Source: an uncultured Oscillospiraceae bacterium (GTDB taxonomy: Bacteria; Bacillota; Clostridia; Oscillospirales; Ruminococcaceae). From it: 64,000 bases of DNA. This document shows, in pieces, positions 7,095-53,468 of the stretch (position 1 is the stretch's first letter; each line of letters starts with the position of its first letter). The position numbers and the translations under genes are program-made. Under the pieces are notes generated by a model, which saw only the letters and a list, made by a program, of their open reading frames with translations, did no database searches and was not told the origin of the DNA. The stretch spans positions 8,847-72,846 of the forward strand of contig CAYJGN010000001.1 in NCBI GenBank assembly GCA_964369635.1, read 5' to 3'.

Positions 7095-7439
7095 TTACTT
7101 AATCTGCTCACGAACCTTCGCGGCTTTACCTACTCTACCTCTTAGATAGTATAGTTTACCTCTGCGAACGCGGCCTCTTCTGATAATATCAACTTTAACA
7201 ACATGTGGTGAGTGGATTGGGAAAACCCTCTCAACACCAACGCCGTATGAAAGACGTCTTACTGTGAAAGTTTCCATAACTCCACCGTGTTTACGAGCTA
7301 TAACTGTTCCTTCGAACATCTGAACTCTTTCTCTCTCACCCTCTTTGATGAGAACATGTACTTTAACTGTGTCACCGATATTAAAGGTAGGCGGTGCCTC
7401 TTTAATTGACGACTGCGCAATTGTTTTTAATGCGTCCAT
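7095..7439 (-). CDS. rplS: 50S ribosomal protein L19
   Basis: 114 aa; the sequence [35 protein letters not shown]...FTVRR is typical of L19. Confidence 0.95.
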
Positions 7440-17700: not shown

Positions 17701-18570
17701 AGTTAATGAAACCGCTCCTATGGTATTAACTGTTAATGTTTCATATGTTGAGATAAACGAGGTAGCTGAATTTGTATCTCTTAGCGAGAAGTTATTAAGA
17801 TGAAGGGTTGCCTCCTCTTCGGTTACTTCAAGATAAACTTTATAGTTATCAGCGTCCGCACCAGAGGTGGTAAATGAATTGCCTGAGATGGTATAATATG
17901 TATTTGCAGCAAGGGTAACTCCTGCAAAATTCACAGAGCCGATAGCACGGCTATTATTTTGCGATAGATTTGGCGCTTTATCACTATCTAAAACTATTAA
18001 ATCTTCTTCACTCTCTTGCTCGTCGCTATTATCAGAGTTTGAGTTATCGCCATTGTTTTCTTTATTTTCATCTTCGCTTTTTCTACCTACTATATTAACT
18101 GTAATTTCAGGCATAACAACAACGTCTGCGACTTCATAGCTATCGTTCGAAATTTTTGCTCTATAAATAAAACTCTGCTCTCTCTCGGTGCTAAATAAAA
18201 CATCACCCAAAAGCTCCCACTCAACATCTATCGATAAACTCTCGTTTGAAATGGTCTGTTGCCACTCTGTTTTATTTTTCTCATCATCGGTATCTGGCGA
18301 AGTTTCCTCATCACTTTGCTGTGGCAGAGCGATTTCCTCCCACAAAATGCTTGTAACAGTTGCATCTAAGCTTGTGGGTAGACTTGGAGCACTATCGCTC
18401 TCTATGGCTATTTCCTGCATAGATAAAGCATCGTCAGGCAAACTTATGGCAGTTATCACCTCGCTGTTTTGATACTTTGCATCAGCCGCGAATATGCTAA
18501 GTGGCAGAGCGCCTATAAGCAGTGCAACCGACAGAATTATCGGCATTAGTTTCCTTTGTTTAACTCTCAT
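11758..18570 (-). CDS. giant cell-surface adhesin-like protein (2270 aa)
   Basis: Signal peptide MRVKQRKLMPIILSVALLIGALPLSIFA. Gly-rich beta-helix-like repeats. A Big_2-like segment (VSYVSSNTAVATVNEFTGHVSIVGRGSTTITATA). Repeated K(E/A)YDxxT modules of the MBG/YDG type. A Listeria-Bacteroides-type repeat (HTITATAGSNGTISP...). An acidic S/D/E/G linker. A C-terminal TM anchor (IIIVVVIVLGAVVFFVF) with no LPXTG. Confidence 0.8.
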   Translation of the reverse strand: MRVKQRKLMPIILSVALLIGALPLSIFAADAKYQNSEVITAISLPDDALSMQEIAIESDSAPSLPTSLDATVTSILWEEIALPQQSDEETSPDTDDEKNKTEWQQTISNESLSIDVEWELLGDVLFSTEREQSFIYRAKISNDSYEVADVVVMPEITVNIVGRKSEDENKENNGDNSNSDNSDEQESEEDLIVLDSDKAPNLSQNNSRAIGSVNFAGVTLAANTYYTISGNSFTTSGADADNYKVYLEVTEEEATLHLNNFSLRDTNSATSFISTYETLTVNTIGAVSLTSETSDSVMAKSLIFKGGALSIKSTDNNGITATGNITISNNLTVVANNAVSAANIYLQDGANLTANANDDGGYGITATELIVPTGASVWANGSAGRNARNGGIAIDAYLNVKGGSVTAFGGNLYNTLGGSAGDGITRLNLESGYVRVRGGSAASAFGQTGGTAITNDAVVEGGKLEATGGDGGVGGSSGSGIGFHIWATGGESYIKGGNLSIADGTLGYAVADGGSDKSTIAGGNVYATGGYNSGTNGPQRAYRQAPNITTPDGKQADHSIGLSAPGTYDADSIHDFASRYVGISYSTPGEVTFAGVNLIVGNYYKFSENGSMTIGSLADYNVYFTNISGKNTLTLSSVSVFGSFAKSLITAGGDLDIILQGNSSLTNSQTGVGVIEVVGNLNFFENGSLSVFGREFGISSGGNITISGGAITSSGSAAKGFAANNLTLNIGSSLNVFGALAVTGNTAINDSYIHVSANDTAYLGTVSISGNSSVTATGRTAFANNPTINAIPTIIAGDTAATAAAVEQSTDYHTNKFVKITTERQSYAVIRILDDSTAGYAQYSLVNGSYYNFDSTAKTLTAATAADYDLFFEVTPAGERLTFNSAVLTDTFIYSAAFLEIVLKGESSITNKTKLRFAINEVSTTLVAGGIIFSGSGKIRIDHSLTEQYMGDYTRAVLSNGNISLIGGCTVEAIATAGVTFQSGDNLTVNPGCTLITDVVGDGIKVPLYTMDVPIANSIFVQNDLLLYNGRIEAKVSTERFFYTNFGEYDFYSDVAGSGIYISSGNVFIRGGDLDVGSASFFRKDGLTNPSYTGHRAIYFDNANSQFYIYPLPATIDFNGSNGNPVFLNYEEVDITINNHLYDDENPHGLYYELNNQSISIAAKGFPDINSMMMGAIGFDPRTVTSAGNVQKDGDVLFLGGDEWVLLKDPVDAPRLLINKNVEDNNLTYQSLTAAEQSAVTGGSLTNLTNQQVTDLVGTELTDGLAINATTKPAFTIDDNAILFRHTNEGGKNGEVGITKDAVVDVFTKQFEVGESAVSNKWSLTLYDSSRADFDAYNLEIVGREVIFEYQNATYGHNEYISVIIGDGLGGILYYGKVRAANDAADESGIITFTLPADLELEEGDYLDILAFNEQVNGEGNTDYSSKLIPVPAIAQSALSGQTIEFSEDTVVKQYGDATFVNPLSGAKTAVSYVSSNTAVATVNEFTGHVSIVGRGSTTITATAELGTGSDGESYSSATDSYTITVSAKEITVTAGDFAVTKEYDNTTSGNSATSTGTLFVSGIAASDLSAVSVSPTIGLFSDKNVTTENKTATVSLALQGDTEGNYTLVTSSIDVPATITPKTASWSVGTVANKAYDGDTDATVTAHPTLSGTYPADNISVTNGTASFASENAANGIAVTAFGYSINGTDTAKSNYTLPTGQPNFNAANITKASYNADDEITVAINAKIDQATTVNLANYLSGLLNPNYPAVNLINYDNTVVTAPTYQSDSTGVLAFSILDTAPLGLQSGVITLNIKSDNHLDVTVLIDITVLDKDVPVLSADDLSKEYDGVAFTEADIENKTATFNGQPILGNWSLETTPSITKAGERQTLTLKFIPSDGEKYATVTTDISSEIIKKPITISVKLDKSAIIVGGTLPIATIDYGDVISGESLAPGSVTAQFSGLPTDSKKAGSYTVRWSNAQAMQTTIDALSAASNYDISYIDTAIFSINSAVTPPTVKTHTITATAGSNGTISPIGKVNVTEGNNQTFTITPNSGYRVLSVTIDGTNYGSITSFTFENVTTPHSISASFTQITTTDTDSDPDDLGEDEGDSESGSEQDDNTESGSKDSSSESGSDSSSSEDSSSDGSEDGNGDSGSSSENTPKIDITDSGEVTITPPANSGEPSGVTIGERVLSNDDYLVNGDGSITVTSEVLRALSNGEHNITVDYGNTSYQATIIVDDGVPLSASNFEETESESGIPLYPIIIVVVIVLGAVVFFVFRSKGRVEK

Positions 18571-37413: not shown

Positions 37414-38577
37414 TTACCGTGCTTCTGGGTCGTCTCTATATGTGTTAAATTCATCGTAATCAGCATAACTAAAGTATCCTTTAATCTCTATCTCACCCGA
37501 TTTAACCATATCTATAACATTATCCATCTCTGCCTGAACATCTTCAGGAGTGTGTGCATAATAGTTATCATTCATAGCAAGTCCAACACCGCCATTTTCA
37601 ATGCCGACATTGTGGTTTCCCCAGTCTATAGAACCATCTGATATGCTATCATAAGCCCAGATTATAGACTCTCTTGCATTTTTTAGCATTGAAGTTAGTA
37701 TGTGTTCATATCCATCAACAACAGTACCCTCTTCTTTAACAGTATCATAGAATGTATATTGATCCATATCAACGCCGATTACATATAGGTCATCACCCTC
37801 TTCGCCTTTATCAACTATTGCATTGCAAGCAGCAAGCGTTGCACTGCCATAGATATTATAAAGGATATCGTAACCATTGTTGTAGAATACTGTAGCGCCT
37901 TCGTAAACTGCTGTTATAGTTGCTTCACCATAATAGGTTGCAACATATTCAACATTTGCATCGTAATTGTCATTGTACCATTTAACACCTTGAATATAGC
38001 CTGCGAGGAAATCGTTGATTATTGGGTTATCTCCCCAGCCGACTCCTGCGACTTTATTTGTCTGAGTCATCATGGCAGAATAGACACCTGTAAGGAATGA
38101 ACCCTCATCCTGTCTAAAGCTCAAACCAACAACATTATCATAAGCCGATAGGTCGAGGTCAGGATTTGTGTCATAAATTATAAAGTTTACATCTTTAAAA
38201 TCCCCATCAAACTTTTCCATTAAACTATCAAGAATATACCAACTTGAAGTTACAACCCAGTCGTAGCCGCCTGACTCAATAGCTTCAAACAATGTGGTAA
38301 CATGAATTGAGCTGTCTGGACCTGCCTCAACAACAGTTAAATCCATATTCCCAGTTTCTGCAATATATTTTGCACCCTCATGTCCGAGATCGTTAAATCC
38401 CATATCTCCAAGATTTGAGCAGAAGAAAAGCAGTTTTTCTTGTTCTGCAGCTTCACTGCTACTGCTTGAAGATGAATCATCAGCGTCACTTGAAGATGTT
38501 GATGAGTCTTCGCCACCACAAGCTACAAGTGTTAATGCAAGTATTAAGGTTAATATTAAAGATAATACTCTTTTCAT
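37414..38577 (-). CDS. BMP-family ABC substrate-binding lipoprotein, paralog 1
   Basis: Lipobox LTLVAC, a Ser/Asp-rich linker, then a BMP (PnrA/Med-like) fold. Clearly related to paralogs 2 and 3 but much more diverged. Confidence 0.85.
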   Translation of the reverse strand: MKRVLSLILTLILALTLVACGGEDSSTSSSDADDSSSSSSSEAAEQEKLLFFCSNLGDMGFNDLGHEGAKYIAETGNMDLTVVEAGPDSSIHVTTLFEAIESGGYDWVVTSSWYILDSLMEKFDGDFKDVNFIIYDTNPDLDLSAYDNVVGLSFRQDEGSFLTGVYSAMMTQTNKVAGVGWGDNPIINDFLAGYIQGVKWYNDNYDANVEYVATYYGEATITAVYEGATVFYNNGYDILYNIYGSATLAACNAIVDKGEEGDDLYVIGVDMDQYTFYDTVKEEGTVVDGYEHILTSMLKNARESIIWAYDSISDGSIDWGNHNVGIENGGVGLAMNDNYYAHTPEDVQAEMDNVIDMVKSGEIEIKGYFSYADYDEFNTYRDDPEAR

Positions 38578-38781
38578 AATTATTACTCCTCACATAGAAA
38601 TAAAACAATAGCTAAAGAAAATCACCATATAATAGTTATGAACTGCAAAACCACTCAAGGTAGATCACTTTAGATTTTTTTTGCACTCTGCAAAAAAAAT
38701 ATTGTTTTATAATAATATGAAATCTATGCCGATACCGATTGGTATCGGCAAAATGATTTCAAAAAATATTTGATAAATTAG

Positions 38782-39939
38782 TTATCTTGCGTCAGGATTG
38801 TCTCTGTACTCAGCAAACTCATCATAATCTGCAAAGTCAAAGTAGCTCTTAACGTCGATCTCACCGTCGATGATCATCTGGATAACTTTATCCATCTCAG
38901 CCTGAACATCTTCTGGTGTATTTGCATAGTAGTTGTCATTCATTGATAGACCAACACCATCATCTGCAAGACCAACTACATAGTTGCCCCACTCAAGTGA
39001 ACCGTCTGCTAAACCATTGAAAGCCCAAAGGATTGAATCTTCGATTTTCTTCTCCATTGATGTTACAACGTTGTTGTAACCTTCAACAACTGTGCCTTCT
39101 TCTTCAGCTGCTGCGTATATTGTCCACTGGTCCATATCAACACCGATTACATAGTAACCTTCAGCGATACCACCGCGCTCTTCAGCCGCCTGAGCAGCAC
39201 CAAGAGTTGTTGAACCTGAAATGTTGTAGAAAACGTCAACGCCGCTGTCGAAGTATACGTTAGCTGACTCGTAAGCATTCTGTATAGCTATTGTGCCATA
39301 GTAGCTTATCTGATAGATAACATCTTCGCCATAAGTATCATTGTACCATTTAACGCCGTGTAGGTAACCTGACATAAAGTCATTTATGATAGGTGAGTCA
39401 GAGTTTCCAACTGTTCCTATTTTGCCAGTCTCAGTCATAAGAGCTGAGTATACAGCTGTTATAAATGATCCTTCATTCTGACCATAAGCAATACCTGTAA
39501 CATTGTCATAGCTTAACTCAAGAGATGGGTTTGTGTCGTAAACGATGAAGTTGATGTCAGCGTACGCGCCACCATCAAGAGCCTCCATTAGTGAATCAAG
39601 AATATACCAGCTTGAAACAACACACCACTTGTATCCGCCTGTATCAAGTGCATCGAATAGAGTTGTAACAGCAGTAGAAGTATCTGTACCGTACTCAACT
39701 GGAGTTAGGTCAAAGCCTTCTTGCTCAGCGATTAGAGTTGCGCCCTCAAAACCGAGATCGTTGAATCCCATGTCGCCTCGAGTACCTGCGAAGAATAGCA
39801 TTTTTGTCTGCTCGCCACCAGCGTCTCCGCCGCCCTCTGAACTACTGCCATTGCCTTCTGAAGCATCCCCACTGCCGCCACAAGCTGCAAGTGTTAATGC
39901 AAGTACTAAAATTAAAATTAGTGATAGAATTTTTTTCAT
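38782..39939 (-). CDS. BMP-family ABC substrate-binding lipoprotein, paralog 2
   Basis: True start is MKKILSLILILVLALTLAAC at 39939 (AAGGAG RBS). The ORF-track extension to 40044 has no support. Confidence 0.85.
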   Translation of the reverse strand: MKKILSLILILVLALTLAACGGSGDASEGNGSSSEGGGDAGGEQTKMLFFAGTRGDMGFNDLGFEGATLIAEQEGFDLTPVEYGTDTSTAVTTLFDALDTGGYKWCVVSSWYILDSLMEALDGGAYADINFIVYDTNPSLELSYDNVTGIAYGQNEGSFITAVYSALMTETGKIGTVGNSDSPIINDFMSGYLHGVKWYNDTYGEDVIYQISYYGTIAIQNAYESANVYFDSGVDVFYNISGSTTLGAAQAAEERGGIAEGYYVIGVDMDQWTIYAAAEEEGTVVEGYNNVVTSMEKKIEDSILWAFNGLADGSLEWGNYVVGLADDGVGLSMNDNYYANTPEDVQAEMDKVIQMIIDGEIDVKSYFDFADYDEFAEYRDNPDAR

Positions 39940-40137
39940 TATAATCTCCTTACATGTAAAACAAACAATATAAAAAGTAAAGCACCTAATTACTGTAATT
40001 ATCTGCAAATAATACAAGGCATTCCACTTTAAATTTTTTTGCACTCTGCAAAAAAAATTGTTCTCAATAATATGAAATCGATGCCGGAACCGATTGGTAC
40101 CGGCAAAACGATCTCTAAAAATATTTGATAAAATTAA

Positions 40138-41304
40138 TTATCTTGCGTCAGGATTGTCTCTGTACTCAGCAAACTCATCATAATCTGCAAAGTCAAAGTA
40201 GCTCTTAACGTCGATCTCACCGTCGATGATCATCTGGATAACTTTATCCATCTCAGCTTGAACATCTTCTGGTGTGTTTGCTAGATAGTTGTCGTTCATA
40301 GCTAGACCAACACCATCATCTGCAAGACCAACTACATAGTTGCCCCAATCAAGTGACTCGTCTTTTAGACCATTGAAAGCCCAAAGGATTGAATCTTCGA
40401 TTTTCTTCTGCATTGATGTTACAACGTTATTGTAACCTTCAACAACTGTGCCTTCTTCTTCAGCTGCTGCGTATATTTTCCACTGGTCCATATCAACACC
40501 GATTACATAGTAACCTTCAGCGATACCGCCGCGCTCTTCAGCCGCCTGAGCAGCACCAAGAGTTGTTGAACCTGAAATGTTATAGAAAACGTCAACGCCG
40601 CTGTCGAAGTATACGTTAGCTGACTCATAAGCATTCTGTATAGCTATTGTGCCATAGTAGCTTATCTGATAGATAACATCTTCGCCATAAGTATCATTGT
40701 ACCATTTAACGCCGTGTAGGTAACCTGACATAAAGTCATTTATGATAGGTGAGTCAGAGTTTCCAACTGTTCCTATTTTGCCAGTCTCAGTCATAAGAGC
40801 TGAGTATACAGCTGTTATAAATGATCCTTCGTTCTGACCATAAGCAATACCGATCATATTGTCATAGCTTAGCTCAAGAGTTGGGTTTGTGTCGTAAATG
40901 ATGAAGTTGATGTCAGCGTACGCGCCACCATCAATAGCTTCCATTAGCGAGTCAAGTGTGTACCAGCTTGATAAAACAGCCCAGTCATATCCACCTGTAT
41001 CAAGAGCATCGAATAGTGATGTAACAGCAACTGAACTGTCTGCACCATACTCAACTGTTGTTAGGTCAAAGCCTTCTTGCTCAGCGATTAGGTTTGCACC
41101 TTCCCAACCGAGATCAGCAAATCCCATATCACCACGGTTACTTGTGAAGAACAGCATTTTTGTCTGCTCGTCACCAGCGTCTCCGCCGCCCTCTGAGCTT
41201 GAACCACCTTCATCGCCGCCGCTTGAAGCGTCGCCGCCGCCGCCACAAGCTGCTAATGCAAAAGCAAGTGACAATACTAATAATAGCGCTAAGATTTTTT
41301 TCAT
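40138..41304 (-). CDS. BMP-family ABC substrate-binding lipoprotein, paralog 3
   Basis: Lipobox FALAAC. A central block of about 135 aa is identical to paralog 2. Confidence 0.85.
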   Translation of the reverse strand: MKKILALLLVLSLAFALAACGGGGDASSGGDEGGSSSEGGGDAGDEQTKMLFFTSNRGDMGFADLGWEGANLIAEQEGFDLTTVEYGADSSVAVTSLFDALDTGGYDWAVLSSWYTLDSLMEAIDGGAYADINFIIYDTNPTLELSYDNMIGIAYGQNEGSFITAVYSALMTETGKIGTVGNSDSPIINDFMSGYLHGVKWYNDTYGEDVIYQISYYGTIAIQNAYESANVYFDSGVDVFYNISGSTTLGAAQAAEERGGIAEGYYVIGVDMDQWKIYAAAEEEGTVVEGYNNVVTSMQKKIEDSILWAFNGLKDESLDWGNYVVGLADDGVGLAMNDNYLANTPEDVQAEMDKVIQMIIDGEIDVKSYFDFADYDEFAEYRDNPDAR

Positions 41305-41370
41305 TTGTTTTCCTCCTTTATTTTTTTATTATTACAGCATAATGCTGCAATTAACTAAATTTAATTGAGC

Positions 41371-42519
41371 TTAATATAGCTCGACATTGCTTGACCCTAT
41401 AGTCATAGCTTCTGGTGTGATAAATGTATCTTCACGTCTTCTAAAGAATGGCTCACCTATATGGATTGAGTGGTATGAAGCAGCCAATGATGCAGGTAGG
41501 TAATCATATAGATATCGAATAAACTCATATCCAGCAACGTTATCAGGTAGCTTTATAAACTTACAAGTTTCAGTTGTATAGTCCGAAAGTTCTCCGTTTG
41601 CAATTAGAACAACTTCTCTTCCCTCTTTTATAGTTTGGGTGAGTGTTTCTGATACCCTTGATTTATTAGCAGCATCCTTATCAGCTAAAATGAAGGTTGC
41701 TATTGAATTTCTCTCAAAGATGAATGTATTAACGTGGCAGTAGTTCTCACTGTCTATAACAGTACATTTAACGCCTGCAACTTCGATATACTTCGCTGCA
41801 ATAAATTCACCAGTTCTAAACATCGAGCCATCGCCTATAACTTCAAATCTCTTAAAGTCTTTAAAGCTCTCTGCTATTTCAAATGCATTATCATCAAAAT
41901 AGTTCATCATATCGCCGTATGCTTTATTATATTTTGAAAGTGCATCTTCGAATTTATCAAAAGCTTCATCAGTTGCAACGCCTTTTATTTTCGCTATATG
42001 CATTGCAAGAGCGTAAAGTCCGATTAGTGAACCATAATATGAACGAAGTCCAGGTGATCTATCTGGATGCTCTGGAGTTCCAACAACAAGTGTACAACTT
42101 GAAGCTTTTGCAGCTCTTGATTCTCCATTATTTGTTAGTGCCATTGCATGACAACCATGTTTTTTAGCTCTTAAAAGTGTTTCCTCAATTCTTGCAGGAC
42201 CACCTGAAGCTGAAACTGCAACTACAAGTGTTTTATCTCCGTTATCAAGATTTACAAGTCTTGATGCTTCGATGCATTTAACTGCTCTTGTTTTACAGTT
42301 AGTTCCTTTTAGATAGTGGTTGAAAACTTCAACAGCTATTTCAGCAGCTATATATGAATCTCCACAACCTGTTAGTATAATCTCAGTTAGGCCTTTTGCC
42401 GCCTCAACTGGTATACTATCCGCAAGATTTGCTTTTGTATTTTTAAACTGCACTTCACCGAGAACCGGTATGTCAATGCATTGACCTTTTAGTGCATTAT
42501 CAAATGCTTTTCTGTCCAT
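41371..42519 (-). CDS. SIS-domain sugar-phosphate isomerase/deglycase-like protein
   Basis: LTGCGDSYIAA and VSASGGPARIEET motifs. Two SIS halves, similar in length to FrlB, AgaS and the GlmS C-terminus. Confidence 0.7.
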   Translation of the reverse strand: MDRKAFDNALKGQCIDIPVLGEVQFKNTKANLADSIPVEAAKGLTEIILTGCGDSYIAAEIAVEVFNHYLKGTNCKTRAVKCIEASRLVNLDNGDKTLVVAVSASGGPARIEETLLRAKKHGCHAMALTNNGESRAAKASSCTLVVGTPEHPDRSPGLRSYYGSLIGLYALAMHIAKIKGVATDEAFDKFEDALSKYNKAYGDMMNYFDDNAFEIAESFKDFKRFEVIGDGSMFRTGEFIAAKYIEVAGVKCTVIDSENYCHVNTFIFERNSIATFILADKDAANKSRVSETLTQTIKEGREVVLIANGELSDYTTETCKFIKLPDNVAGYEFIRYLYDYLPASLAASYHSIHIGEPFFRRREDTFITPEAMTIGSSNVELY

Positions 42520-42531
42520 CTTTACCCCCTC

Positions 42532-43716
42532 CTACTTCACTACTACAACTTCACTGCTACCTGTGGTGCCGTGAGAAAATGTTCCTTTGGCTTTAGCTTT
42601 CTCTGTATCAAAACTTCTTTTTTCAAAATCATATGAACCAAAGAAATCTTTTCCACCGTGATAAGCTTGATAGCCTGCTATTAGTGAACCAGGGATAAAA
42701 TCAACTGTTGAAAGTGCAAACGCATTATCTGCACCAGTGTCTGGAAGTTTGAAGAACTCTATACCATCTATAAAGTCACTCTTCTCACCGTTTGAAACAA
42801 CAACTGTTGGTCTTCCGATAAGTTTTGCCGACATAACTGTCTCAACAACTCTTGAATAGTTATTCTTATATTTATTTGCTATAACAACAACAGGAATTTC
42901 TGTTGGGTTGTTTACAAATACATTTATGTGACACCAGTCTTCTGAGTCTACATGCGAAGCCACAACGCCACCACACTCGATAAACTTCTCTTCAACAAAC
43001 TGCGCTGAGAAGAACTCACTGCCATCACCGACAACCTCAAACTCTGTGAAATCTTTAAATCTTTCACCGATAGTTGATGCAAGTTTGTCTGCCTCACAAA
43101 GGCTTCCCTCGTAAGCCGACATCATCTCTTCCATCTGCTTGCCGCATTTTAAAAACTCTGAAACATCTTTCCCTGCTTTTAAGTTTCCTATGTAACTGCC
43201 AAGTGCTGTAACACCAAGCATACTTGCATAGTATGAGCGAAGTCCCGGAGTATCGCATAGAGGAGGTGTTTCCATAATAAATAGTTTCTTTGCAACTGAA
43301 GCCGCTTTCGACTCCGATTTATTCGAAACAAGAACTGTTTGGACACCTATCTCTTGAAATTTCGTTACCATCTCAACTATTCTCGAAGCACCACCACCGG
43401 CACTAACAACAATAGCAAGGGTATTTTCAGGTTTATCTATTATTACATCTTCAGTAGTTAGAAATCTTGATGCATCCATAGGGTCGTACGCTTTAACATC
43501 AATACCATATAGATCTGATATTATATATGAAGCAACTGAACCCGCTGAATAAGAATCTCCACACCCTGATATTATTATCTTATCTATTTTTGAGAGTTCT
43601 TCTTTTGAAAAGATTGATAAAATCTTCTCCTCATTAAACACGCTTTTTACTTGAATCTTTGATAACTCTGGCAAACTTAGCACCTGCAAGCTTACCGAAT
43701 TGTTCACTTCCTGCAT
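42532..43716 (-). CDS. SIS-domain sugar-phosphate isomerase/deglycase-like protein (paralog)
   Basis: ISGCGDSYSAG and VSAGGGASRIVEM motifs. Same architecture as the neighbouring gene. Confidence 0.7.
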   Translation of the reverse strand: MQEVNNSVSLQVLSLPELSKIQVKSVFNEEKILSIFSKEELSKIDKIIISGCGDSYSAGSVASYIISDLYGIDVKAYDPMDASRFLTTEDVIIDKPENTLAIVVSAGGGASRIVEMVTKFQEIGVQTVLVSNKSESKAASVAKKLFIMETPPLCDTPGLRSYYASMLGVTALGSYIGNLKAGKDVSEFLKCGKQMEEMMSAYEGSLCEADKLASTIGERFKDFTEFEVVGDGSEFFSAQFVEEKFIECGGVVASHVDSEDWCHINVFVNNPTEIPVVVIANKYKNNYSRVVETVMSAKLIGRPTVVVSNGEKSDFIDGIEFFKLPDTGADNAFALSTVDFIPGSLIAGYQAYHGGKDFFGSYDFEKRSFDTEKAKAKGTFSHGTTGSSEVVVVK

Positions 43717-45966: not shown

Positions 45967-47244
45967 TTAGACTTTAGATACCTTCGGTATAACAGTTCCT
46001 GCATTTTCAACCACAAAAACGCTTTTTCCTTCAAAATCAACTGTTTTTAAAATTTCCAGAGCATCGGTATACACTTCTATTCCCATAGCTTTCGCATCAT
46101 CTTTATCGAGCGTTGAGAGAAGGATAATCCTATATCTCTTTGCTTGTTCGCAGTTTAGATAAAATATGTAACCTGGAATGGTGAAGTTCTCCCTCAGTTC
46201 TTTATCCAAAACTCCCTTTTCAAGCGGCTTTAACCAATCGAAATAATCAGGTGGCCCTCCCCCATCGGGGCATTCGGTTACGAGGATTAACGTTCCTCCA
46301 AGTTTCAGTCCACTCTCTAAGTTATCAATGCTCTTACTCCCTTGGTATAATGATATATCTTTTGGAAATCCACCGCAAGAAGCAATAATTATATCAGCTT
46401 TCTCTTCAATCATAACCTCGTAGCAGCTTTGAGCCTGCATACACCCTTTATGCCAAGCTTTTTCAAAATGGCCTGAAAAAATATGCGATAGTTTCATATC
46501 TGGGTTCATAACAAGGTTTACCGTATAAAGATGCTCTATCGCCTCTGCCGCCTCCATCATATCGAGATGCAACGGATTGTTAAGGAGTTTTGCATTGCCA
46601 ATCAGCGGATTTGATTGCTCCTTTATTGGGTCGAGCGAATGAGCATGATTTTGCTTTATAGCCTCCATCGAAGCAACGCCCGGTAAAATACTCTTGCGAC
46701 CGCCGCCAAACCCCGCCATAACATGCTGCGTGCAAGCTCCAATAGCGACTACTTTTCTTGACGCAACCTCTTTGTTTATCCGAAGAACTGTCCCACGAGA
46801 GGTTGTGCATATGTATGTTAAATCCGAGTCGTTGCAGTCATGGTAGATAACCTCTATATTACTCGCAACCTCTTCAGTTAGAAGTGTTTTGGTATCTTCA
46901 TCACTACCAGCTTCGTGAGTCCCTGTTGATATAACTATAACCATATCGCTATACGGAATTTTGCAAACATCTCGAAGATAGGAAACAACATGCGGCACAA
47001 CGAGGTCTTGTCTCATCCAAAACCTTGTCATATCTGATACGATAATCGCTATTTTATCCCCTTTTTTTGCCCACTTCGCAAGTGGAGGCAGACCTATTGG
47101 ATTATTTAGCGAACCAAAAGTAGCAGCTCTTATATCATCTATTGCAGCAGTTTCTTTTCCTGAAAGCTCTGCTAAAACAAGTGAGCTTTCAATTGGAAAG
47201 TTAATATAACTTTTCCCATACTTTAGCTTATAGTTTTTTATCAT
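45967..47244 (-). CDS. LarA-family (nickel-pincer dependent) 2-hydroxyacid racemase/epimerase-like protein
   Basis: Start at MIKNYKLKYG (47244, GGAGGA RBS). DUF2088-type N-terminus, and GFGGGRKSILPGV containing the Lys that tethers the NPN cofactor in LarA (from memory). Confidence 0.65.
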   Translation of the reverse strand: MIKNYKLKYGKSYINFPIESSLVLAELSGKETAAIDDIRAATFGSLNNPIGLPPLAKWAKKGDKIAIIVSDMTRFWMRQDLVVPHVVSYLRDVCKIPYSDMVIVISTGTHEAGSDEDTKTLLTEEVASNIEVIYHDCNDSDLTYICTTSRGTVLRINKEVASRKVVAIGACTQHVMAGFGGGRKSILPGVASMEAIKQNHAHSLDPIKEQSNPLIGNAKLLNNPLHLDMMEAAEAIEHLYTVNLVMNPDMKLSHIFSGHFEKAWHKGCMQAQSCYEVMIEEKADIIIASCGGFPKDISLYQGSKSIDNLESGLKLGGTLILVTECPDGGGPPDYFDWLKPLEKGVLDKELRENFTIPGYIFYLNCEQAKRYRIILLSTLDKDDAKAMGIEVYTDALEILKTVDFEGKSVFVVENAGTVIPKVSKV

Positions 47245-47257
47245 GCTTGTCCTCCAA

Positions 47258-47791
47258 CTAAAATTCATTAAATGAGCAAATTTCAGAAAACTCTTTTCGA
47301 CTTTTATTTGTAGGTTTGTCACTCACGCTATACCCAAGTGCAATAACCATCCTAATCTTAACATCACAAGGCACCTTAAATCGCTCGCGAATCATCTTTT
47401 CATCAAACAGACCGATAATACAGCTTCCAATACCCAAATCCGCCGCCGCATAGCAGATAGCAGAAGTGGCACCGCCAAGATCAAAGTCGGCATAGAATTG
47501 GCTGTCACACTCAAGGCTTTTCATAAGCGTTACTTTAGACTCGCAAACGATAATATAGCTCGAAACATCAACTGTCCATCTATTTATCGAATAATTTTCA
47601 TCAATTATGCACTCGTGCATCGCAGCTCCCACATCGCCGTCTGCAACGATAAATCTCCATGGTTGCGAGTTACAGGCAGAAGGAGACAAAGCAGCAGTAT
47701 TAATAATCGAGATTATATCATCTCTACTAACCTTTTTATCGCTATATTTTCTTATGCTACTTCTATTAATAGCAAGTTCTTTAAAACTCAT
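47258..47791 (-). CDS. nitroreductase family protein
   Basis: RSSIRKYSDKKV....SPSACNSQPWRFIV is the classic nitroreductase N-terminus. Confidence 0.8.
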   Translation of the reverse strand: MSFKELAINRSSIRKYSDKKVSRDDIISIINTAALSPSACNSQPWRFIVADGDVGAAMHECIIDENYSINRWTVDVSSYIIVCESKVTLMKSLECDSQFYADFDLGGATSAICYAAADLGIGSCIIGLFDEKMIRERFKVPCDVKIRMVIALGYSVSDKPTNKSRKEFSEICSFNEF

Positions 47792-48021
47792 AAACTACCC
47801 CTTTTTTAACGAATTATTATTTAAATAATATCATAAGGGGTAAAAAATGTAAATAAAATAACCTCTATAGTTTATATATCTTCTGAAAGGATGTTTGTTT
47901 TTAAAGTGTTCAATTAGTGCATTTATTTTTTAATAAACTTTAATATTAAGTTTGAAACATCACTTTACCACTGGCATATTCTACATTAAAAACAAACAAA
48001 TTGGGTGCAGCGTCACGCTGC

Positions 48022-48606
48022 TGGTGCGATCACCGGGACAGTAATTTTGCTTTACAAAATTACCACCCTCGCAAATCTTCGATTTGCTCACGCATTTTTT
48101 CTAAAAATATGCCACTGGCATATTTTACAACGAAAAAACCCACTTTGGCTTCAAGTCCCTTTTTACAGTGAAATTATAAAAAAATATCTCCCACAGTTTT
48201 CACTGTAGAAGATATTTGGTGCGATCACCGGGACAGTAATTTTGCTTTGCAAAATTACCACCCTCGCAAATCTTCGATTTGCTCACGCATTTTTTCTAAA
48301 AATATGCCACTGGCATATTTTACAACGAAAAAACCCACTTTGGCTTCAAGTCCCTTTTTACAGTGAAATTATAAAAAAATATCTCCCACAGTTTTCACTG
48401 TAGAAGATATTTGGTGCGATCACCGGGACAGTAATTTTGCTTTGCAAAATTACCACCCTCGCAAATCTTCGATTTGCTCACGCATTTTTTCTAAAAATAT
48501 GCCACTGGCATATTTTACAACGAAAAAACCCACTTTGGCTTCAAGTCCCTTTTTACAGTGAAATTATAAAAAAATATCTCCCACAGTTTTCACTGTAGAA
48601 GATATT
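48022..48606. repeat. 3 x 195-bp perfect-period tandem repeat, each unit carrying the 18-nt 3' end of tRNA-Leu
   Basis: Units at 48022-48216, 48217-48411 and 48412-48606. Each starts with TGGTGCGATCACCGGGAC. I saw one substitution (48054 A versus G at 48249 and 48444). Confidence 0.95.
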
Positions 48607-48689
48607 TGGTGCGATCACCGGGACTTGAACCCGGATGGTTGCCCACACGCCCCTCAAACGTGCGCGTCTGCCAGTTCCGCCATGATCGC
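48607..48689 (-). tRNA. tRNA-Leu (anticodon GAG), CCA encoded
   Basis: Folded by hand. Acceptor GCGATCA/TGATCGC. D-arm GCG-GAACTGGCAGA-CGC. Anticodon stem CACGT/GCGTG with loop TTGAGGG. Long variable arm TGGGCAACCAT. T-arm CCGGG-TTCAAGT-CCCGG. Discriminator A followed by CCA. Confidence 0.9.
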
Positions 48690-48745
48690 TCGATGTCACG
48701 AGCTATATTATATCATTACCAGCGGACAAAAGTCAACACTTTTTG

Positions 48746-49228
48746 TTAATTTAATTTGTTTATTGAAATAGATAAAATGAGCGCAAAAAATATCCATACA
48801 ATATATGGTAATGTCAGTATTCCAGCTTTTATATTTACCGTTAAAAAATTATATAACATTACTATTGAAACAAGAATTAACGCTACCAAAACCAAAAGAG
48901 CCGCTTCTCTGTTCCCTTGAATAAAAAAGACATAATACCAGACGAAATTTAGAAAAATTGTTATATAGTAAATTATCGCACTGCTTGGTGTATAGTTTTC
49001 TGATGTGAAAACTATATAAGAAGCTATTATAAGCATTATATACAAAACAGACCAAACAAGCGAAAAAACAGCCGCTGGCGGCGCGAAATCCGGCCGCGAA
49101 AACGATTCGTAATCAAACCGTACCATATCCCCTGTAAATGCCGCGAAACCCATAAGTAGTAGTACTGGCAGAACCGACATTGCTATCTCTTTAATTCGAA
49201 AAACTGCTATTTTCATATATTTCACCAC
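48746..49228 (-). CDS. tspO: TspO/MBR family tryptophan-rich sensory protein
   Basis: 160 aa with five TM segments and the FAPPAAVFSLVWSVLYIML motif. Confidence 0.75.
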   Translation of the reverse strand: MVKYMKIAVFRIKEIAMSVLPVLLLMGFAAFTGDMVRFDYESFSRPDFAPPAAVFSLVWSVLYIMLIIASYIVFTSENYTPSSAIIYYITIFLNFVWYYVFFIQGNREAALLVLVALILVSIVMLYNFLTVNIKAGILTLPYIVWIFFALILSISINKLN

Positions 49229-49320
49229 CTAAATAAAATATATGATTGTTTTTTTAAAAAATGATAATAATTTTGTTTTGATGTTATTATATTTTTTGAA
49301 GCATGCGCAAAAAAAGAAAG

Positions 49321-49402
49321 CACCCACCCGCAGCAGCTATGCATTTATGCATAGCTACTGCTTTGCAGTCGGCGACTAAAAGTCGCCAGCTGCGGGTGGG
49401 TG
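49321..49402 (-). terminator. GC-rich four-way-junction terminator after the ACT-domain gene
   Basis: A 14-bp closing stem (CACCCACCCGCAGC / GCTGCGGGTGGGTG) encloses three perfect hairpins (AGCTATGCA 9 bp, ACTGC 5 bp, GGCGACT 7 bp). The minus sense continues CTTTCTTTTTTTG. Confidence 0.6.
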
Positions 49403-49429
49403 TGTTGTTCTGTTTTGGATATGCAAAAA

Positions 49430-49852
49430 CTAAATATCAGATTTTTTCAAAACCTTTATTCCTGCATTAAGCAGAACTTCAACTGCTTTTTCATTCTCCT
49501 CAACACGAAGAATAACATAAGCGTGGTTTCTGTTTCGCGAAACATATGCATAGAGGTAATCAACATTTATTCCAGCCTCTGCAAGCGTTTCAAGTGCATT
49601 ACAAAGTCCACCAGGACTATCCTTGACCCCAACAGCAATAACCTTCGTGATTGAAACGGTATGACCATCTTCTTTTAATGCTTCACAAGCTTTTTGAGGA
49701 TCATCAACGATAAGCCTTAAAATACCAAAATCAGCTGTATCTGCAAGCGAAAGCGCTTTAATATCTATCTGCGCATCTCTTAAAACACTTGTAATTTTGA
49801 TAAGTTTCCCCTTTTCGTTCTCAACGAATACTGAAAGTTGTTCTATTAACAT
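49430..49852 (-). CDS. ACT domain-containing protein
   Basis: 140 aa in two ACT-like halves. This is the usual last gene of ior/paaK operons. Confidence 0.7.
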   Translation of the reverse strand: MLIEQLSVFVENEKGKLIKITSVLRDAQIDIKALSLADTADFGILRLIVDDPQKACEALKEDGHTVSITKVIAVGVKDSPGGLCNALETLAEAGINVDYLYAYVSRNRNHAYVILRVEENEKAVEVLLNAGIKVLKKSDI

Positions 49853-49867
49853 AATAATTACCTCCTA

Positions 49868-51184
49868 TTATTTTCTTTTATCTATAACCCGAACTGCTTT
49901 TCCTTCGCTTCTCGGGATAGATTTTGGCTCAACAAGTTTAACCTTTGCCGCAATTCCAAGTGTTGATTCAATAGCGGCACGCAAACCCTTCTCATGCTCT
50001 TCAACCTCTGCCACTTTATCAGAGAAAAACTCAGGCGACATTTCAACTAAAATCGTTATTCTATCGAGGTTATCAACCCTCTCAACAATAATCTGATAAT
50101 GTGGTGCAACACTTGATTTAGTCAAGATAACGCTCTCTATCTGCGATGGGAAAACATTAACTCCTCTGATAATCAGCATATCGTCAGTTCTACCGCTCGG
50201 CTTCGACATTTTGATAAGAGTTCTACCGCAGCTGCAATTCTCTCGCCAAATTTTCGCTATATCACGAGTCCTATAACGAATTAGCGGGAGTGTTTCTTTT
50301 GTGATACAGGTAAAAACAAGCTCACCATATTCACCGTCCGGTAAAACCTCGCCTGTATCAGGGTCGATAATCTCCGGCACAAAATGATCTTCATTAACAT
50401 GCATACCGCTCTGATCACTGCACTCGATAGAAACACCAGGCCCCATAATTTCCGATAAACCATAGATATCATATGCTTTTATCTTCATTCGCTTCTCTAT
50501 CTCTGAGCGCATATCTTCAGTCCAAGGTTCTGCGCCGAAAATTCCAGCTTTTAGCTTCGTATCAGCGGGGTCTATTCCCATCTCTTCCATAGCTTCAACT
50601 AAATATAGCGCGTATGACGGTGTGCAGCAGAGAATTTCACTCTCAAAGTCAACAATGATATTTATCTGTCTGTTTGTATTTCCCGATGAAACAGGAATTG
50701 CAGTTGCACCGAGCTTTTCAGTACCATAATGCATACCAAGTCCACCAGTAAAGAGACCATAGCCATACGAAACATGTATTTTCGAGCTTTTATCTCCTCC
50801 TGCCGCAACGATAGCTCTCGCACAGCACTCTGACCATGCATCAATATCGTTTGCAGTATATCCAACAACCGTCTGTTTGCCCGTTGTTCCACTTGATGCG
50901 TGAATACGAACAACATCATCCATAGGAGTTGCAAACAGGCCATATGGATAGGTATCACGAAGATCTTGTTTGTAGGTAAATGGTAGTTTTGAAAGATCAT
51001 CTATTGATGTTATATCTTCGGGTTTTATCCCCATCTCATCAAATTTCTGCTTGTAAAACGGAACATTTTCATAAACTCTTTTTACAGTATCGATAAGCCT
51101 TTTCGATTGTATCTCTTTCATCGACGAAAGTTCTATTGTTTCTATCTTCTCATCGTAATATCTCAACTTTATACCCCCCAGCAA
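49868..51184 (-). CDS. paaK: phenylacetate-CoA ligase family protein
   Basis: SSGTTGKQTVVGYT AMP-binding motif and a PaaK-type N-terminus (YENVPFYKQKF). The start may be the second TTG at 51166, behind GGGGGT. Confidence 0.85.
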   Translation of the reverse strand: MLGGIKLRYYDEKIETIELSSMKEIQSKRLIDTVKRVYENVPFYKQKFDEMGIKPEDITSIDDLSKLPFTYKQDLRDTYPYGLFATPMDDVVRIHASSGTTGKQTVVGYTANDIDAWSECCARAIVAAGGDKSSKIHVSYGYGLFTGGLGMHYGTEKLGATAIPVSSGNTNRQINIIVDFESEILCCTPSYALYLVEAMEEMGIDPADTKLKAGIFGAEPWTEDMRSEIEKRMKIKAYDIYGLSEIMGPGVSIECSDQSGMHVNEDHFVPEIIDPDTGEVLPDGEYGELVFTCITKETLPLIRYRTRDIAKIWRENCSCGRTLIKMSKPSGRTDDMLIIRGVNVFPSQIESVILTKSSVAPHYQIIVERVDNLDRITILVEMSPEFFSDKVAEVEEHEKGLRAAIESTLGIAAKVKLVEPKSIPRSEGKAVRVIDKRK

Positions 51185-51741
51185 TATCCAAGCTCAAATG
51201 CCTTTAAATTAACATCAATAAACTGCTCTTTAACAGACTTCCGAAGACTATCAATCCAAATATCTTTCGGTATATCCATAGTATTCGCCAGGACACCCAT
51301 CATAACAACATTAACAGCTTTTGTGTTCCCAGCTTCTTCGGCTTTTGAGAGAGCGTCAAGTGATATAACTTTAATGCCTTTTTTCTCAATCTTCTCAACC
51401 AAATCACTCGGATAATCAGCAGCACCGGTTATAACAGGCATAGGGTCTATCTGCTGGGTATTAACTAATAAAACTCCACCCTCTTTAAGTGAGGATATAT
51501 ATCTTGCTCCCTCGAGCAGCTCAAATGCAACAACCGCATCTGCCTCTCCATTTTCAATAGTTGGAGAATGAACGCTCTCCCCATATTTAACATAAGTTAC
51601 AACGCTACCGCCCCTCTGGCTCATACCATGAACCTCTGAAACTTTAACATCGTAATCTTTGCTTGTAAGAACATTTCCAAGCAACTTACTTGCAAGCAGA
51701 CTTCCCTGTCCGCCAACTCCAACAACCATAATGCTCCCCAT
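51169..51741 (-). CDS. iorB: indolepyruvate ferredoxin oxidoreductase, beta subunit
   Basis: VVGVGGQGSLLASKLLG N-terminus, 190 aa, immediately downstream of iorA. Confidence 0.85.
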   Translation of the reverse strand: MGSIMVVGVGGQGSLLASKLLGNVLTSKDYDVKVSEVHGMSQRGGSVVTYVKYGESVHSPTIENGEADAVVAFELLEGARYISSLKEGGVLLVNTQQIDPMPVITGAADYPSDLVEKIEKKGIKVISLDALSKAEEAGNTKAVNVVMMGVLANTMDIPKDIWIDSLRKSVKEQFIDVNLKAFELGYCWGV

Positions 51742-53468
51742 TAGCGCACCTCCCGTATAGCATTAAATTTACAAACTTTTTGGCAAAGCCCACAGCCAAC
51801 ACATAGCGATTTATCAATATTAACACCATCTTCAGTTGCTTTAATTGCAGGACAGCCTATCTTCATGCATGCTTTGCAGTTTTTACAGTCTTTCACAATT
51901 AGTGGTGGATATTTTTTAACGCTCTTTAGAAGAACACAAGGTCTTCTCGCAATTATAACAGATGGAGCATTAAGCGATGTTGCTTCTTTTACCGTCTTCT
52001 CAAACTCTATTAGATCACAAGGGTCAACTACAAAGACGTTTTTAATCCCAACAGACTCACAAAGCATCTCAAGGTTTATAGCTGATGCCGGCTCACCTAT
52101 TATATTCATACCGTTTAGCGGGTTATTCTGATGTCCAGTCATACCTGTTATGCTGTTGTCAAGAACTATAACCGTGCTGTTTGTGTTGTTATAAACAGCG
52201 TTTATAAGCCCCGTAATACCCGAATGGGCAAATGTTGAGTCGCCTATAACCGCAACCCTCTTATTTGCATTTTCACTATCGCTTAAATTCATACCGTGCA
52301 GCGCTGAAACAGATGCTCCCATGCAGATAGTTGAGTCAATTCCAAATAGCGGAGCGCCAGCACCGAGGGTGTAGCATCCGATATCGCCTGAAACGGTGTA
52401 TTTTAGTTTTGATAAAATATGGAAAGCACCTCTATGCGGACAGCCTGGACATAGCACAGGTGGGCGCATAGGCATATTTTCATCAAGGGTTTTAAAGGCA
52501 AATTTCTCACCGAGTATTGCCTCTCGAACAGCTGCTGCAGTCATCTCACCAATTCTTGGTAAAACTTTTGATCCTACAACAGAAATATCATTTTGAAGAC
52601 AGAAGTTTTCTATAAATGGGTCGAGCTCCTCAACAACATAAACAATATCTTTATCTTTGCAGAAGTCTGCTATTAAATCTTTCGATAACGGATAAACCAT
52701 ACCGAGTTTTAGGTATGAAACCTTATCCCCAAGAGCCTCTCTTGCATATTGATAGCTAATTCCACTTGTTATAACGCCTATTTCGCTATTGTTATCTATT
52801 ATTTTGTTATAGCGATTACTACCAGCAATCTCTTCAAGTTCGCCCATCCTCTTCTCAACAACAAGCCTTCTGCCCCTTGCAAAGCCCGGCATCATAACGA
52901 ATTTCGCTGGGTCTTTTTTATATTCTTTTCTCGCTATTTGTGCTCTATCTTCTGTTGTGGTCATAGTTTGTGTGTGTGAGATACGAGTGGATAATCTTAT
53001 TATAACAGGAGTATCGCACTCTTCAGATAGCTCAAAAGCTGTTTTGGTGAAAAGGCGGCATTCCTCAGAGTCTGCCGGCTCAAGCACCGGTATCTTTGAT
53101 GCATACCCAAGGTTTCTTGTATCCTGCTCATTTTGTGATGAGTGCATACCAGGGTCGTCTGCAACGGCTATAACAAGTCCGCCATTGACACCGGTGTACG
53201 ACACTGTAAAAAGCGGGTCTGCCGCAACATTAAGACCAACATGCTTCATCGCTGAAAATGCACGTGAGCCCATAATCGATGCGCCAATAGCAGTTTCAAG
53301 AGCTACCTTTTCATTTGGCGCCCATTCGCTTTTAATCTCGCTATAACCGCTAATATATTCAGTTATCTCGGTACTTGGAGTTCCAGGATAGCTTGAAACA
53401 ACCTGCGCCCCCGATTCATAAACTCCTCTGGCAACCGCTTCGTTGCCAAGCATAAGTTTCTTTTTCAT
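51741..53468 (-). CDS. iorA: indolepyruvate ferredoxin oxidoreductase, alpha subunit
   Basis: TPP-binding GDSTFAHSG, plus C-terminal 2x[4Fe-4S] motifs CKACMKIGCP and CVGCGLCQKVC. Confidence 0.85.
   Translation of the reverse strand: MKKKLMLGNEAVARGVYESGAQVVSSYPGTPSTEITEYISGYSEIKSEWAPNEKVALETAIGASIMGSRAFSAMKHVGLNVAADPLFTVSYTGVNGGLVIAVADDPGMHSSQNEQDTRNLGYASKIPVLEPADSEECRLFTKTAFELSEECDTPVIIRLSTRISHTQTMTTTEDRAQIARKEYKKDPAKFVMMPGFARGRRLVVEKRMGELEEIAGSNRYNKIIDNNSEIGVITSGISYQYAREALGDKVSYLKLGMVYPLSKDLIADFCKDKDIVYVVEELDPFIENFCLQNDISVVGSKVLPRIGEMTAAAVREAILGEKFAFKTLDENMPMRPPVLCPGCPHRGAFHILSKLKYTVSGDIGCYTLGAGAPLFGIDSTICMGASVSALHGMNLSDSENANKRVAVIGDSTFAHSGITGLINAVYNNTNSTVIVLDNSITGMTGHQNNPLNGMNIIGEPASAINLEMLCESVGIKNVFVVDPCDLIEFEKTVKEATSLNAPSVIIARRPCVLLKSVKKYPPLIVKDCKNCKACMKIGCPAIKATEDGVNIDKSLCVGCGLCQKVCKFNAIREVR

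Follow-up and report, generated by a model that had tools for sequence, protein, structure and literature searches.

What brings copies of a tRNA gene's own 3' end into a near-identical tandem array directly behind that gene, and does such an array have a role of its own? We address this question for the array that follows the tRNA-Leu(GAG) gene in a 64,000-nt stretch (the window) of contig CAYJGN010000001.1 (positions 8,847 to 72,846; assembly GCA_964369635.1) of an uncultured Oscillospiraceae bacterium. Judged by its layout and predicted folding, the array is of the same organisational type as the distal repeats of Escherichia coli tyrT (rtT/rttR, Rfam RF00391) and of independent origin; it is non-homologous to them and located in a different phylum. 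As to how it arose, we see the chances as about balanced that a small module entered at the T-loop boundary of the tRNA-Leu gene and was recently amplified, and that its first hairpin now ends the tRNA transcript, with the others as redundant terminators.

The array and its RtT-type organisation

One tandem array with a period of 195 bp spans positions 48022-48624 (Tandem Repeats Finder, TRF; 3.1 copies, 99% matches, 0 indels). By direct comparison, units 2 and 3 are identical and unit 1 differs solely at 48054 (A vs G), and both analyses bear out the three 195-bp units with one varying base that an initial annotation of this DNA had described. Read as its reverse complement, the 18-mer TGGTGCGATCACCGGGAC comprises the last 2 T-loop nt, the 3' T-stem, the 3' acceptor strand, the discriminator base and CCA. 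It occurs exactly four times in the 64 kb (0 expected, 100 shuffles), once per unit and once as the last 18 nt of the tRNA gene itself (48607-48624), and this count likewise upheld the annotated presence of the reverse-complemented tRNA terminus in each unit. The array consists of the following parts:

48607-48689, minus strand: intact tRNA-Leu(GAG) gene with encoded CCA (ARAGORN; Rfam tRNA model, 46.9 bits)
48412-48606, minus strand: unit 3, adjoining the tRNA; in tRNA sense 177 nt (48606-48430), then the 18-nt copy of the tRNA 3' end (48429-48412)
48217-48411, minus strand: unit 2, same sequence as unit 3
48022-48216, minus strand: unit 1, distal, with A instead of G at 48054

Resemblance to a tRNA is limited to this 18-nt direct piece and a 13-nt inverted piece in each unit. 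No cloverleaf was detected inside the units (ARAGORN found one tRNA in the window and Rfam no tRNA match in the units at E<=10), and no further unit copies lie within the window. Coding potential is likewise lacking in the array: every unit has a stop in all frames, no open reading frame (ORF) crosses a unit, and the ORFs present (<=67 aa) have only TTG or GTG starts, no ribosome-binding site and no credible start. No tpr-like gene was found at the array. The G+C content of the 177-bp segment is 0.33, compared with 0.23 in the intergenic DNA distal to the array and 0.35-0.38 in two intergenic stretches beyond the other side of the tRNA. A CRISPR-like array was rejected, as the 'spacers' would be identical to one another.

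The features relevant to transcription and folding are:

48707-48736, minus strand: tRNA-Leu promoter (TTGACT, 18-nt spacer, TATAAT, upstream TG; 11/12 positions), the same as in the sister locus L031
48572-48607, minus strand: intrinsic terminator hairpin with a 16-bp stem, a GAAA loop and T7 at 48568-48574
48537-48549, minus strand: inverted copy of the tRNA T-arm, GGGACTTGAAgCC, matching at 12/13 positions and beginning 57 nt after CCA; further copies at 48342-48354 and 48147-48159
48412-48549, minus strand: 138-nt RtT-like domain, a GGGAC/GUCCC helix around three perfect triloop hairpins; repeated in units 2 and 1 at -195 and -390
48494-48516, 48461-48477 and 48430-48454, minus strand: hairpins 2, 3 and 4 of the 138-nt domain, perfect palindromes with 3-nt loops

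The terminator hairpin begins at the final A of CCA and has identical copies at 48377-48412 and 48182-48217, so that the annotated terminator-like hairpin with its T7 run is present once per unit; three terminators were found, compared with 1.1 expected over the entire region. Its folding energy is -19.8 kcal/mol in tRNA sense and -10.3 kcal/mol on the opposite strand, where it is weaker because two pairs are G.U, and the terminator is therefore strand-specific. For the whole unit the corresponding energies are -71.7 and -55.5 kcal/mol. Ending the tRNA transcript is predicted from these hairpins and is the array's one well-supported role. The initial annotation had also listed a TATAAT box in each unit and named promoter-to-terminator RNA genes as one possibility. 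The latter was not supported: the box has no acceptable -35 element, the promoter scan called no promoter within the units, and the terminator lies at the 5' end of the unit in tRNA sense, not at its 3' end.

The inverted T-arm copy had not been noticed in the earlier reading of this locus. A match to the tRNA's own T-arm as good as that of GGGACTTGAAgCC was reached by 3 of 1000 shuffles. In the minimum-free-energy fold its first 5 nt (GGGAC) pair with GUCCC of the tRNA fragment and close the 138-nt domain, leaving a predicted 13-nt 3' tail, GGUGAUCGCACCA, that ends in ACCA. The three perfect hairpins per unit reported earlier were recovered inside this helix. Folding of the domain (-50.8 kcal/mol) is well beyond that of shuffled sequences (z = -5.6), as is that of the unit (z = -8.1). 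Hairpins 2 and 3 have equal energy on both strands and hairpin 4 differs little (-9.9 vs -9.3 kcal/mol); being nearly strand-symmetric, the hairpins therefore say little on which strand matters. The unit 1 variant at 48054 changes the loop-closing C-G pair of hairpin 4 to U.G in tRNA-sense RNA, and solely in that RNA does it retain pairing. An independent function of the predicted domain is unproven.

The distal repeats of E. coli tyrT have been known for decades, since the late 1970s. We analysed the E. coli K-12 locus (L062, NC_000913.3 1285500-1288500, with tyrT, tyrV, rttR and tpr annotated) with the same tools as the window, and it proved to have the same layout, contrary to the initial annotation, whose author was aware of no described family so organised. 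In both genomes a tandem array of 3.1 copies stands directly behind a tRNA gene on the same strand; the tyrT/tyrV array has a period of 178 and 95% matches (TRF). The units end in the last 18-19 nt of the tRNA, including CCA, with a fragment that starts inside the T-loop (AATCCTTCCCCCACCACCA, the last 19 nt of tRNA-Tyr, in E. coli). Every unit has an inverted T-arm copy that begins 57-59 nt after CCA; the E. coli copy, at about L062 1677-1698 and in the other units, matches at 19/22 positions, begins 59 nt after CCA and was equalled by 0 of 1000 shuffles. In the Rfam RtT consensus this copy and the tRNA fragment form the helix that closes a multi-hairpin domain of 130 nt, whose ...CCACCA tail is free, and the predicted fold of the window unit likewise encloses its hairpins in a helix of inverted T-arm and tRNA 3' fragment, here of 5 bp, with a single-stranded CCA tail (domains of 130-138 nt). 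Four E. coli copies matched RF00391 at 133-137 bits as a positive control. In window positions 46000-51000 the same model (gathering score 45 bits) had no match at E<=10 and Rfam found only the tRNA. With its shared layout and no sequence match, the window unit thus reproduces the RtT organisation and predicted topology without homology.

The sister locus and the probable original tRNA end

The only relatives found were two genomes of a sister lineage, and the array is in neither. The TspO-like protein encoded near the array has two close relatives among 15 billion proteins, which are those of the window's own 96-kb contig and of L031, a locus of an Oscillospiraceae metagenome-assembled genome (MAG); no exact-protein matches of the array's neighbours were found in other assemblies. 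Both the tRNA, which is identical, and its promoter are shared by L031, and on the upstream side the identity is 81-85%. L031 contains no array and a single 18-mer. In tRNA sense, homology and features along the locus are arranged as follows:

49264-48606, minus strand: matches L031, tRNA and upstream side
48606-48040, minus strand: no match (array)
48039-48008, minus strand: matches the L031 tRNA end and its native trailer
48008-48021, minus strand: ancestral tRNA trailer, a mini-hairpin (GCAGCGTGACGCTG) adjoining the distal 18-mer
48007-47857, minus strand: no match; AT-rich orphan spacer of 151 nt with a homolog in neither relative and a partial (17/18) hairpin 2 copy at 47968-47985
47856 onwards, minus strand: matches L064; the start of this homology is the far edge of the rearranged segment
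47825-47853, minus strand: promoter of the nitroreductase-LarA operon

The trailer after the distal 18-mer matches the native L031 trailer at 10/14 positions (P ~7e-4), compared with 5/14 for the trailer of the window's intact tRNA. The distal 18-mer (48022-48039) is thus most likely the original tRNA end, separated from the gene body by 585 bp. Since the 18-mer stands on both borders of the array (3.1 copies), the state before amplification was tRNA, 177 bp and 18-mer, an arrangement from which we infer an insertion with an 18-nt duplication beginning in the T-loop.

The array sits at a synteny breakpoint, which the earlier reading had likewise not recorded. The nitroreductase-LarA operon adjoins the array in the window, lies on a different contig (L064) of the MAG that contains L031, and follows unrelated genes in L063; the adjacency of tRNA-Leu and this operon is unique to this genome, and a rearrangement junction therefore lies at 47857-48007. 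The partial copy that the initial annotation had placed in this flank was recovered as an 18-nt block of 17/18 identity, at 47968-47985 rather than at 47978-47995, and 2 of 500 shuffles reached an equal score. With only these 18 nt similar, a decayed fourth unit in the flank was rejected.

Two further repeats were observed behind the same tRNA in L031. A perfect palindrome of 17 bp, with a 3-nt loop and A5/T5 flanks, stands behind the gene at L031 3126-3162 and resembles a bidirectional terminator, and at 3203-3336 a 39-nt direct repeat has two copies 95 nt apart with 90% identity. Intergenic DNA of this lineage may typically contain perfect palindromes with triloops.

Searches for a donor and the weighing of origins

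Proteins of the window were scanned with Pfam (43 of the 48 non-overlapping ORFs of >=120 aa, plus the nitroreductase; a 2270-aa ORF was outside the scan). All scanned ORFs were housekeeping or unassigned, and the annotated absence of an integrase from the 64 kb stands at this coverage. Inspection and homology to L031 identified the genes at 49430-53468 as ACT, PaaK, IorB and IorA. A distant blastn search of the unit yielded no match in phage and plasmid records, and hence no sign there of the attP-bearing (phage attachment site) element that the initial annotation had envisaged. The 18-mer had three exact matches in IMG/VR, all of them chance occurrences in coding DNA of 66-68% GC without a tRNA. 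In GTDB species genomes, which were scanned for the 18-mer only, it occurred at 31 loci with one match each, and only L031 and L034 are real tRNA loci; among 25 single-match loci in JGI metagenomes only L046 and L047 are tRNAs. The junction of unit and tRNA fragment had 0 matches in JGI metagenomes, and three of four unit-internal segments had none in IMG/VR. Altogether, neither a cognate integrase nor a related attP-bearing element was found among the scanned window ORFs or in phage and plasmid records, IMG/VR and JGI metagenomes.

The fourth segment, hairpin 2, occurred in two IMG/VR viral contigs of 62-63% GC. Hairpin 2 and its A and T flanks make up a 26-nt block, CTAAAAATATGCCACTGGCATATTTT (window 48102-48127 and the other units), that is 100% identical to L004 2829-2854 and L005 7447-7472. 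In L005 it lies within an intergenic hairpin-repeat mosaic of about 300 bp that is bounded by 23-nt direct repeats, CGGCGCAGCCGCGAAGCTGTATT, at 7211 and 7513. The block may be a module of a small dispersed palindromic-repeat family common to gut Clostridia and their phages.

Two special attachment or priming sites were considered and rejected. A retroviral-type primer-binding site, suggested by 18 nt complementary to a tRNA 3' end on the plus strand, was dismissed with no reverse transcriptase among the scanned ORFs and no convincing plus-strand promoter directed into the units. A folded single-strand attachment (att) site like that of CTX phage, made of the direct and inverted T-arm pieces, was discarded on the grounds that just 5 bp pair within a unit and that the unit-unit junction lacks the T-loop and the 5' T-stem.

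Elsewhere in the window, the 2270-aa ORF (11758-18570, minus strand) adjoins a response regulator/histidine kinase pair. At 37414-43716 (minus strand), three tandem paralogous Bmp/PnrA-type substrate-binding proteins and two SIS-domain proteins are encoded next to ABC transporter, nucleoside-hydrolase and kinase genes, which looks like an expanded nucleoside or sugar-amine uptake cluster.

For the origin of the array at the DNA level, att-like scars amplified by unequal crossover, one of the possibilities raised in the initial annotation, fit best, given the start of the repeat in the T-loop, the array-free L031 locus and the trailer matches. At the T-loop boundary, a hairpin-rich segment of 177 bp would have entered along with a duplicate of the 18 terminal nt of tRNA-Leu(GAG), leaving the tRNA gene intact and pushing its original 3' end and native trailer downstream. 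An insertion with a duplication of about 20 nt from the T-loop to the gene end is what site-specific integration usually leaves behind. Slippage or unequal crossing-over, at first involving the 18-nt direct repeats and later entire units, would then have raised the 195-bp module to three copies; with one difference in 585 bp the amplification would be recent. The first 40 nt of each unit are predicted to form a strong strand-specific terminator that starts at CCA, the proximal copy of which would end the tRNA-Leu transcript, with the two other copies held in reserve as terminators and shielding the nitroreductase-LarA operon behind the array. For the other 138 nt, a fold with RtT topology is predicted; if made as RNA, they would come from read-through transcripts.

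Several points weigh against this insertion and amplification. Among the scanned ORFs of the window there is no integrase, recombinase, transposase or reverse transcriptase, and with no homolog of the 177 bp in phage and plasmid records, IMG/VR or JGI metagenomes, the donor element is hypothetical. Only one genome carries the array, and orthology of the trailer rests on 14 nt. Since a hairpin 2 fragment (17/18) is found past the trailer, some of the unit may have originated locally, and the inverted T-arm copy can be accounted for neither by integration nor by unequal crossing-over.

Other origins and roles appear less probable. The units could be RtT-like RNA genes, transcribed either from the TATAAT box or, through read-through, from the tRNA promoter, and processed by the machinery that matures tRNA 3' ends into stable structured RNAs of about 138-195 nt, with the array kept for the function of this RNA. 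We regard this as unlikely; the main argument for keeping an RNA-level reading open is the inverted T-arm copy, for which no model of DNA origin accounts. In its predicted topology and size the domain agrees with RtT, with closing helix, internal hairpins and ACCA tail; the folding far exceeds that of shuffles in unit and domain; all wobble pairs, including the 48054 polymorphism, keep their pairing on the tRNA-sense strand only; and the G+C content of the 177 bp exceeds that of the distal intergenic DNA. There is precedent in the rttR RNA, which is encoded by one tyrT repeat unit of E. coli (PMC3318445). Against these observations stand a strong intrinsic terminator ahead of every 138-nt domain, which argues against efficient read-through and has no counterpart in the E. 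coli units, the lack of a detected promoter in the units, the strand symmetry of hairpins 2 and 3 with a difference of 0.6 kcal/mol in hairpin 4, and a closing helix of just 5 bp. Neither homologs nor an Rfam match were found, and even the function of E. coli rtT is unsettled (bioRxiv 10.1101/2024.07.17.603846). As part of this same unlikely reading, the products would end in the acceptor 3' strand with CCA and could, for instance, mimic the 3' end of an uncharged tRNA or serve as a decoy for it. A purely local tandem duplication, in which the 177 bp are this lineage's ancestral tRNA trailer and nothing was inserted, is the usual assumption for the E. coli tyrT array. There the sequence after the last tRNA fragment resembles the unit start, so local duplication suffices. 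For the window we think it improbable. The hairpin 2 fragment in the flank and the perfect triloop palindromes behind the L031 tRNA would both be in keeping with it, but the array ends in an 18-mer and a trailer like that of L031, which the unit start does not resemble, and a simple duplication of [18+177] would place a perfect copy of the 18 nt at the distal end only if an 18-nt direct repeat had already been there.

An active miniature cis-mobilizable element, with 195-bp att-flanked units moved by a tyrosine integrase encoded elsewhere and the tRNA as a live landing pad, appears slightly more improbable still. The unit-unit junction does have the form of an attP site (P arm, 18-nt core, P' arm), the signs of insertion seen in comparison with L031 agree with such an element, and tandem att-flanked arrays without an integrase have been described (PMC5704250; PMC3146451). 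However, the scanned ORFs of the window include no integrase, no related attP or element turned up in the collections searched, and unequal crossing-over explains the near-identical copies more simply. To our knowledge, a 195-bp circle would be far below the size of any described integrative element and a poor recombination substrate. We give the least credence to an assembly artefact, by which a short-read assembler looping through a repeat produced the array or its copy number. In its favour, metagenome-type assemblies are the sole source for this lineage, its relatives being MAGs, units 2 and 3 are identical, and tandem repeats longer than the k-mer are hard to count. But the single-base difference of unit 1 and the unique array borders require that at least two real copies and both junctions exist in the reads, the array is internal to a 96-kb contig, and its biological reading is independent of the exact copy number.

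Comparison with known systems

Att scars and cis-mobilizable elements (CIMEs) at tRNA or tmRNA genes share with the window the direct repeats of an RNA-gene 3' end around DNA that is absent from a relative; here the native flank is kept as well, with a trailer support of 14 nt. The identity block of about 18-20 nt from the T-loop is common to both, and in the window it includes the last 2 T-loop nt. Like the anticodon loop, the T-loop is a known integration sublocation, at which direct repeats of about 20 bp are left (PMC3146451; PMC1762012). Several att-flanked segments in tandem without an integrase also have parallels, in tandem islands, some of them without integrases, that are described under the terms 'cis-mobilizable elements' and accretion (PMC3146451; PMC5704250). 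In contrast to these cases, which are kilobase-sized and differ from one another, the window segments are 177 bp long, mutually identical and devoid of integration genes or any genes; no related attP element was found in the searched collections, and an inverted T-arm copy is not a described att feature. Repetitive extragenic palindromes (REP), bacterial interspersed mosaic elements (BIMEs) and miniature inverted-repeat transposable elements (MITEs) resemble the window unit in being mosaics of short perfect palindromes, some with A-run and T-run flanks like those of bidirectional terminators, and one 26-nt module recurs in unrelated GC-rich viral contigs within another hairpin mosaic. Unlike them the unit lacks dispersed copies: outside the array the 64 kb contain none, and the junction (in JGI metagenomes) and three unit-internal segments (in IMG/VR) have none either. 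It also lacks the terminal inverted repeats and short target duplications of MITEs.

The closest parallel is E. coli tyrT. In addition to the layout described above, the two arrays have in common that part of the unit is related to short dispersed palindromic repeats, the 26-nt hairpin 2 module in the window and BIMEs in E. coli, where rtT and BIME repeats have sequence in common (PMC2965389). According to Bosl & Kersten (1991), as cited in PMC3318445, rtT is co-transcribed with the tRNA and processed to a discrete stable RNA. The arrays differ in sequence, with no similarity at the level of primary sequence or covariance model, in their tRNA (Leu(GAG) vs Tyr) and in their host, an Oscillospiraceae-like Clostridia lineage vs Enterobacteria. 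A strong intrinsic terminator heads each window unit and none is there in E. coli; the closing helix is 5 bp vs 8-10 bp; the copies are 99.8% identical vs 95%; and the window array is without a tpr-like ORF. The window array moreover looks inserted, with the native trailer after its last fragment, unlike that of E. coli, whose unit start resembles the flank behind the array.

The inverted T-arm copy, present in the units of both genomes, is predicted by no origin model considered. The present case is one array in one poorly sampled genome. It adds to E. coli tyrT a second instance whose sequence is unrelated, whose tRNA is a different one and whose host belongs to a distant phylum. The T-loop-start fragment, inverted T-arm offset and closing helix shared by the two suggest that the layout is more than an accident of history; its source could be either a generating mechanism at tRNA T-arms or a function that the two have in common. 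That rtT-type tRNA-distal repeats are a general, recurrently evolving class, arising by one common mechanism at tRNA T-arms and yielding structured RNAs, is a speculative extension that we consider improbable. What would define such a class is a module with a direct repeat of the ~18 terminal nt of the tRNA and an inverted T-arm ~58 nt after CCA, and the layout suggests a pattern that can be searched genome-wide, namely periodic copies of a tRNA gene's own 3' end with an inverted T-arm downstream of the gene. Its RNAs would present a free acceptor 3' strand identical to that of the tRNA, with CCA, as possible decoys of the uncharged tRNA 3' end, and candidate readers of such decoys would be processing nucleases, the CCA-adding enzyme, T-box leaders and the stringent-response machinery. 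Both function and origin of the rtT RNA are still unsettled after decades, and the window, if it belongs to such a class, would provide its first member from beyond Enterobacteria and a comparison that helps in understanding the E. coli repeats.

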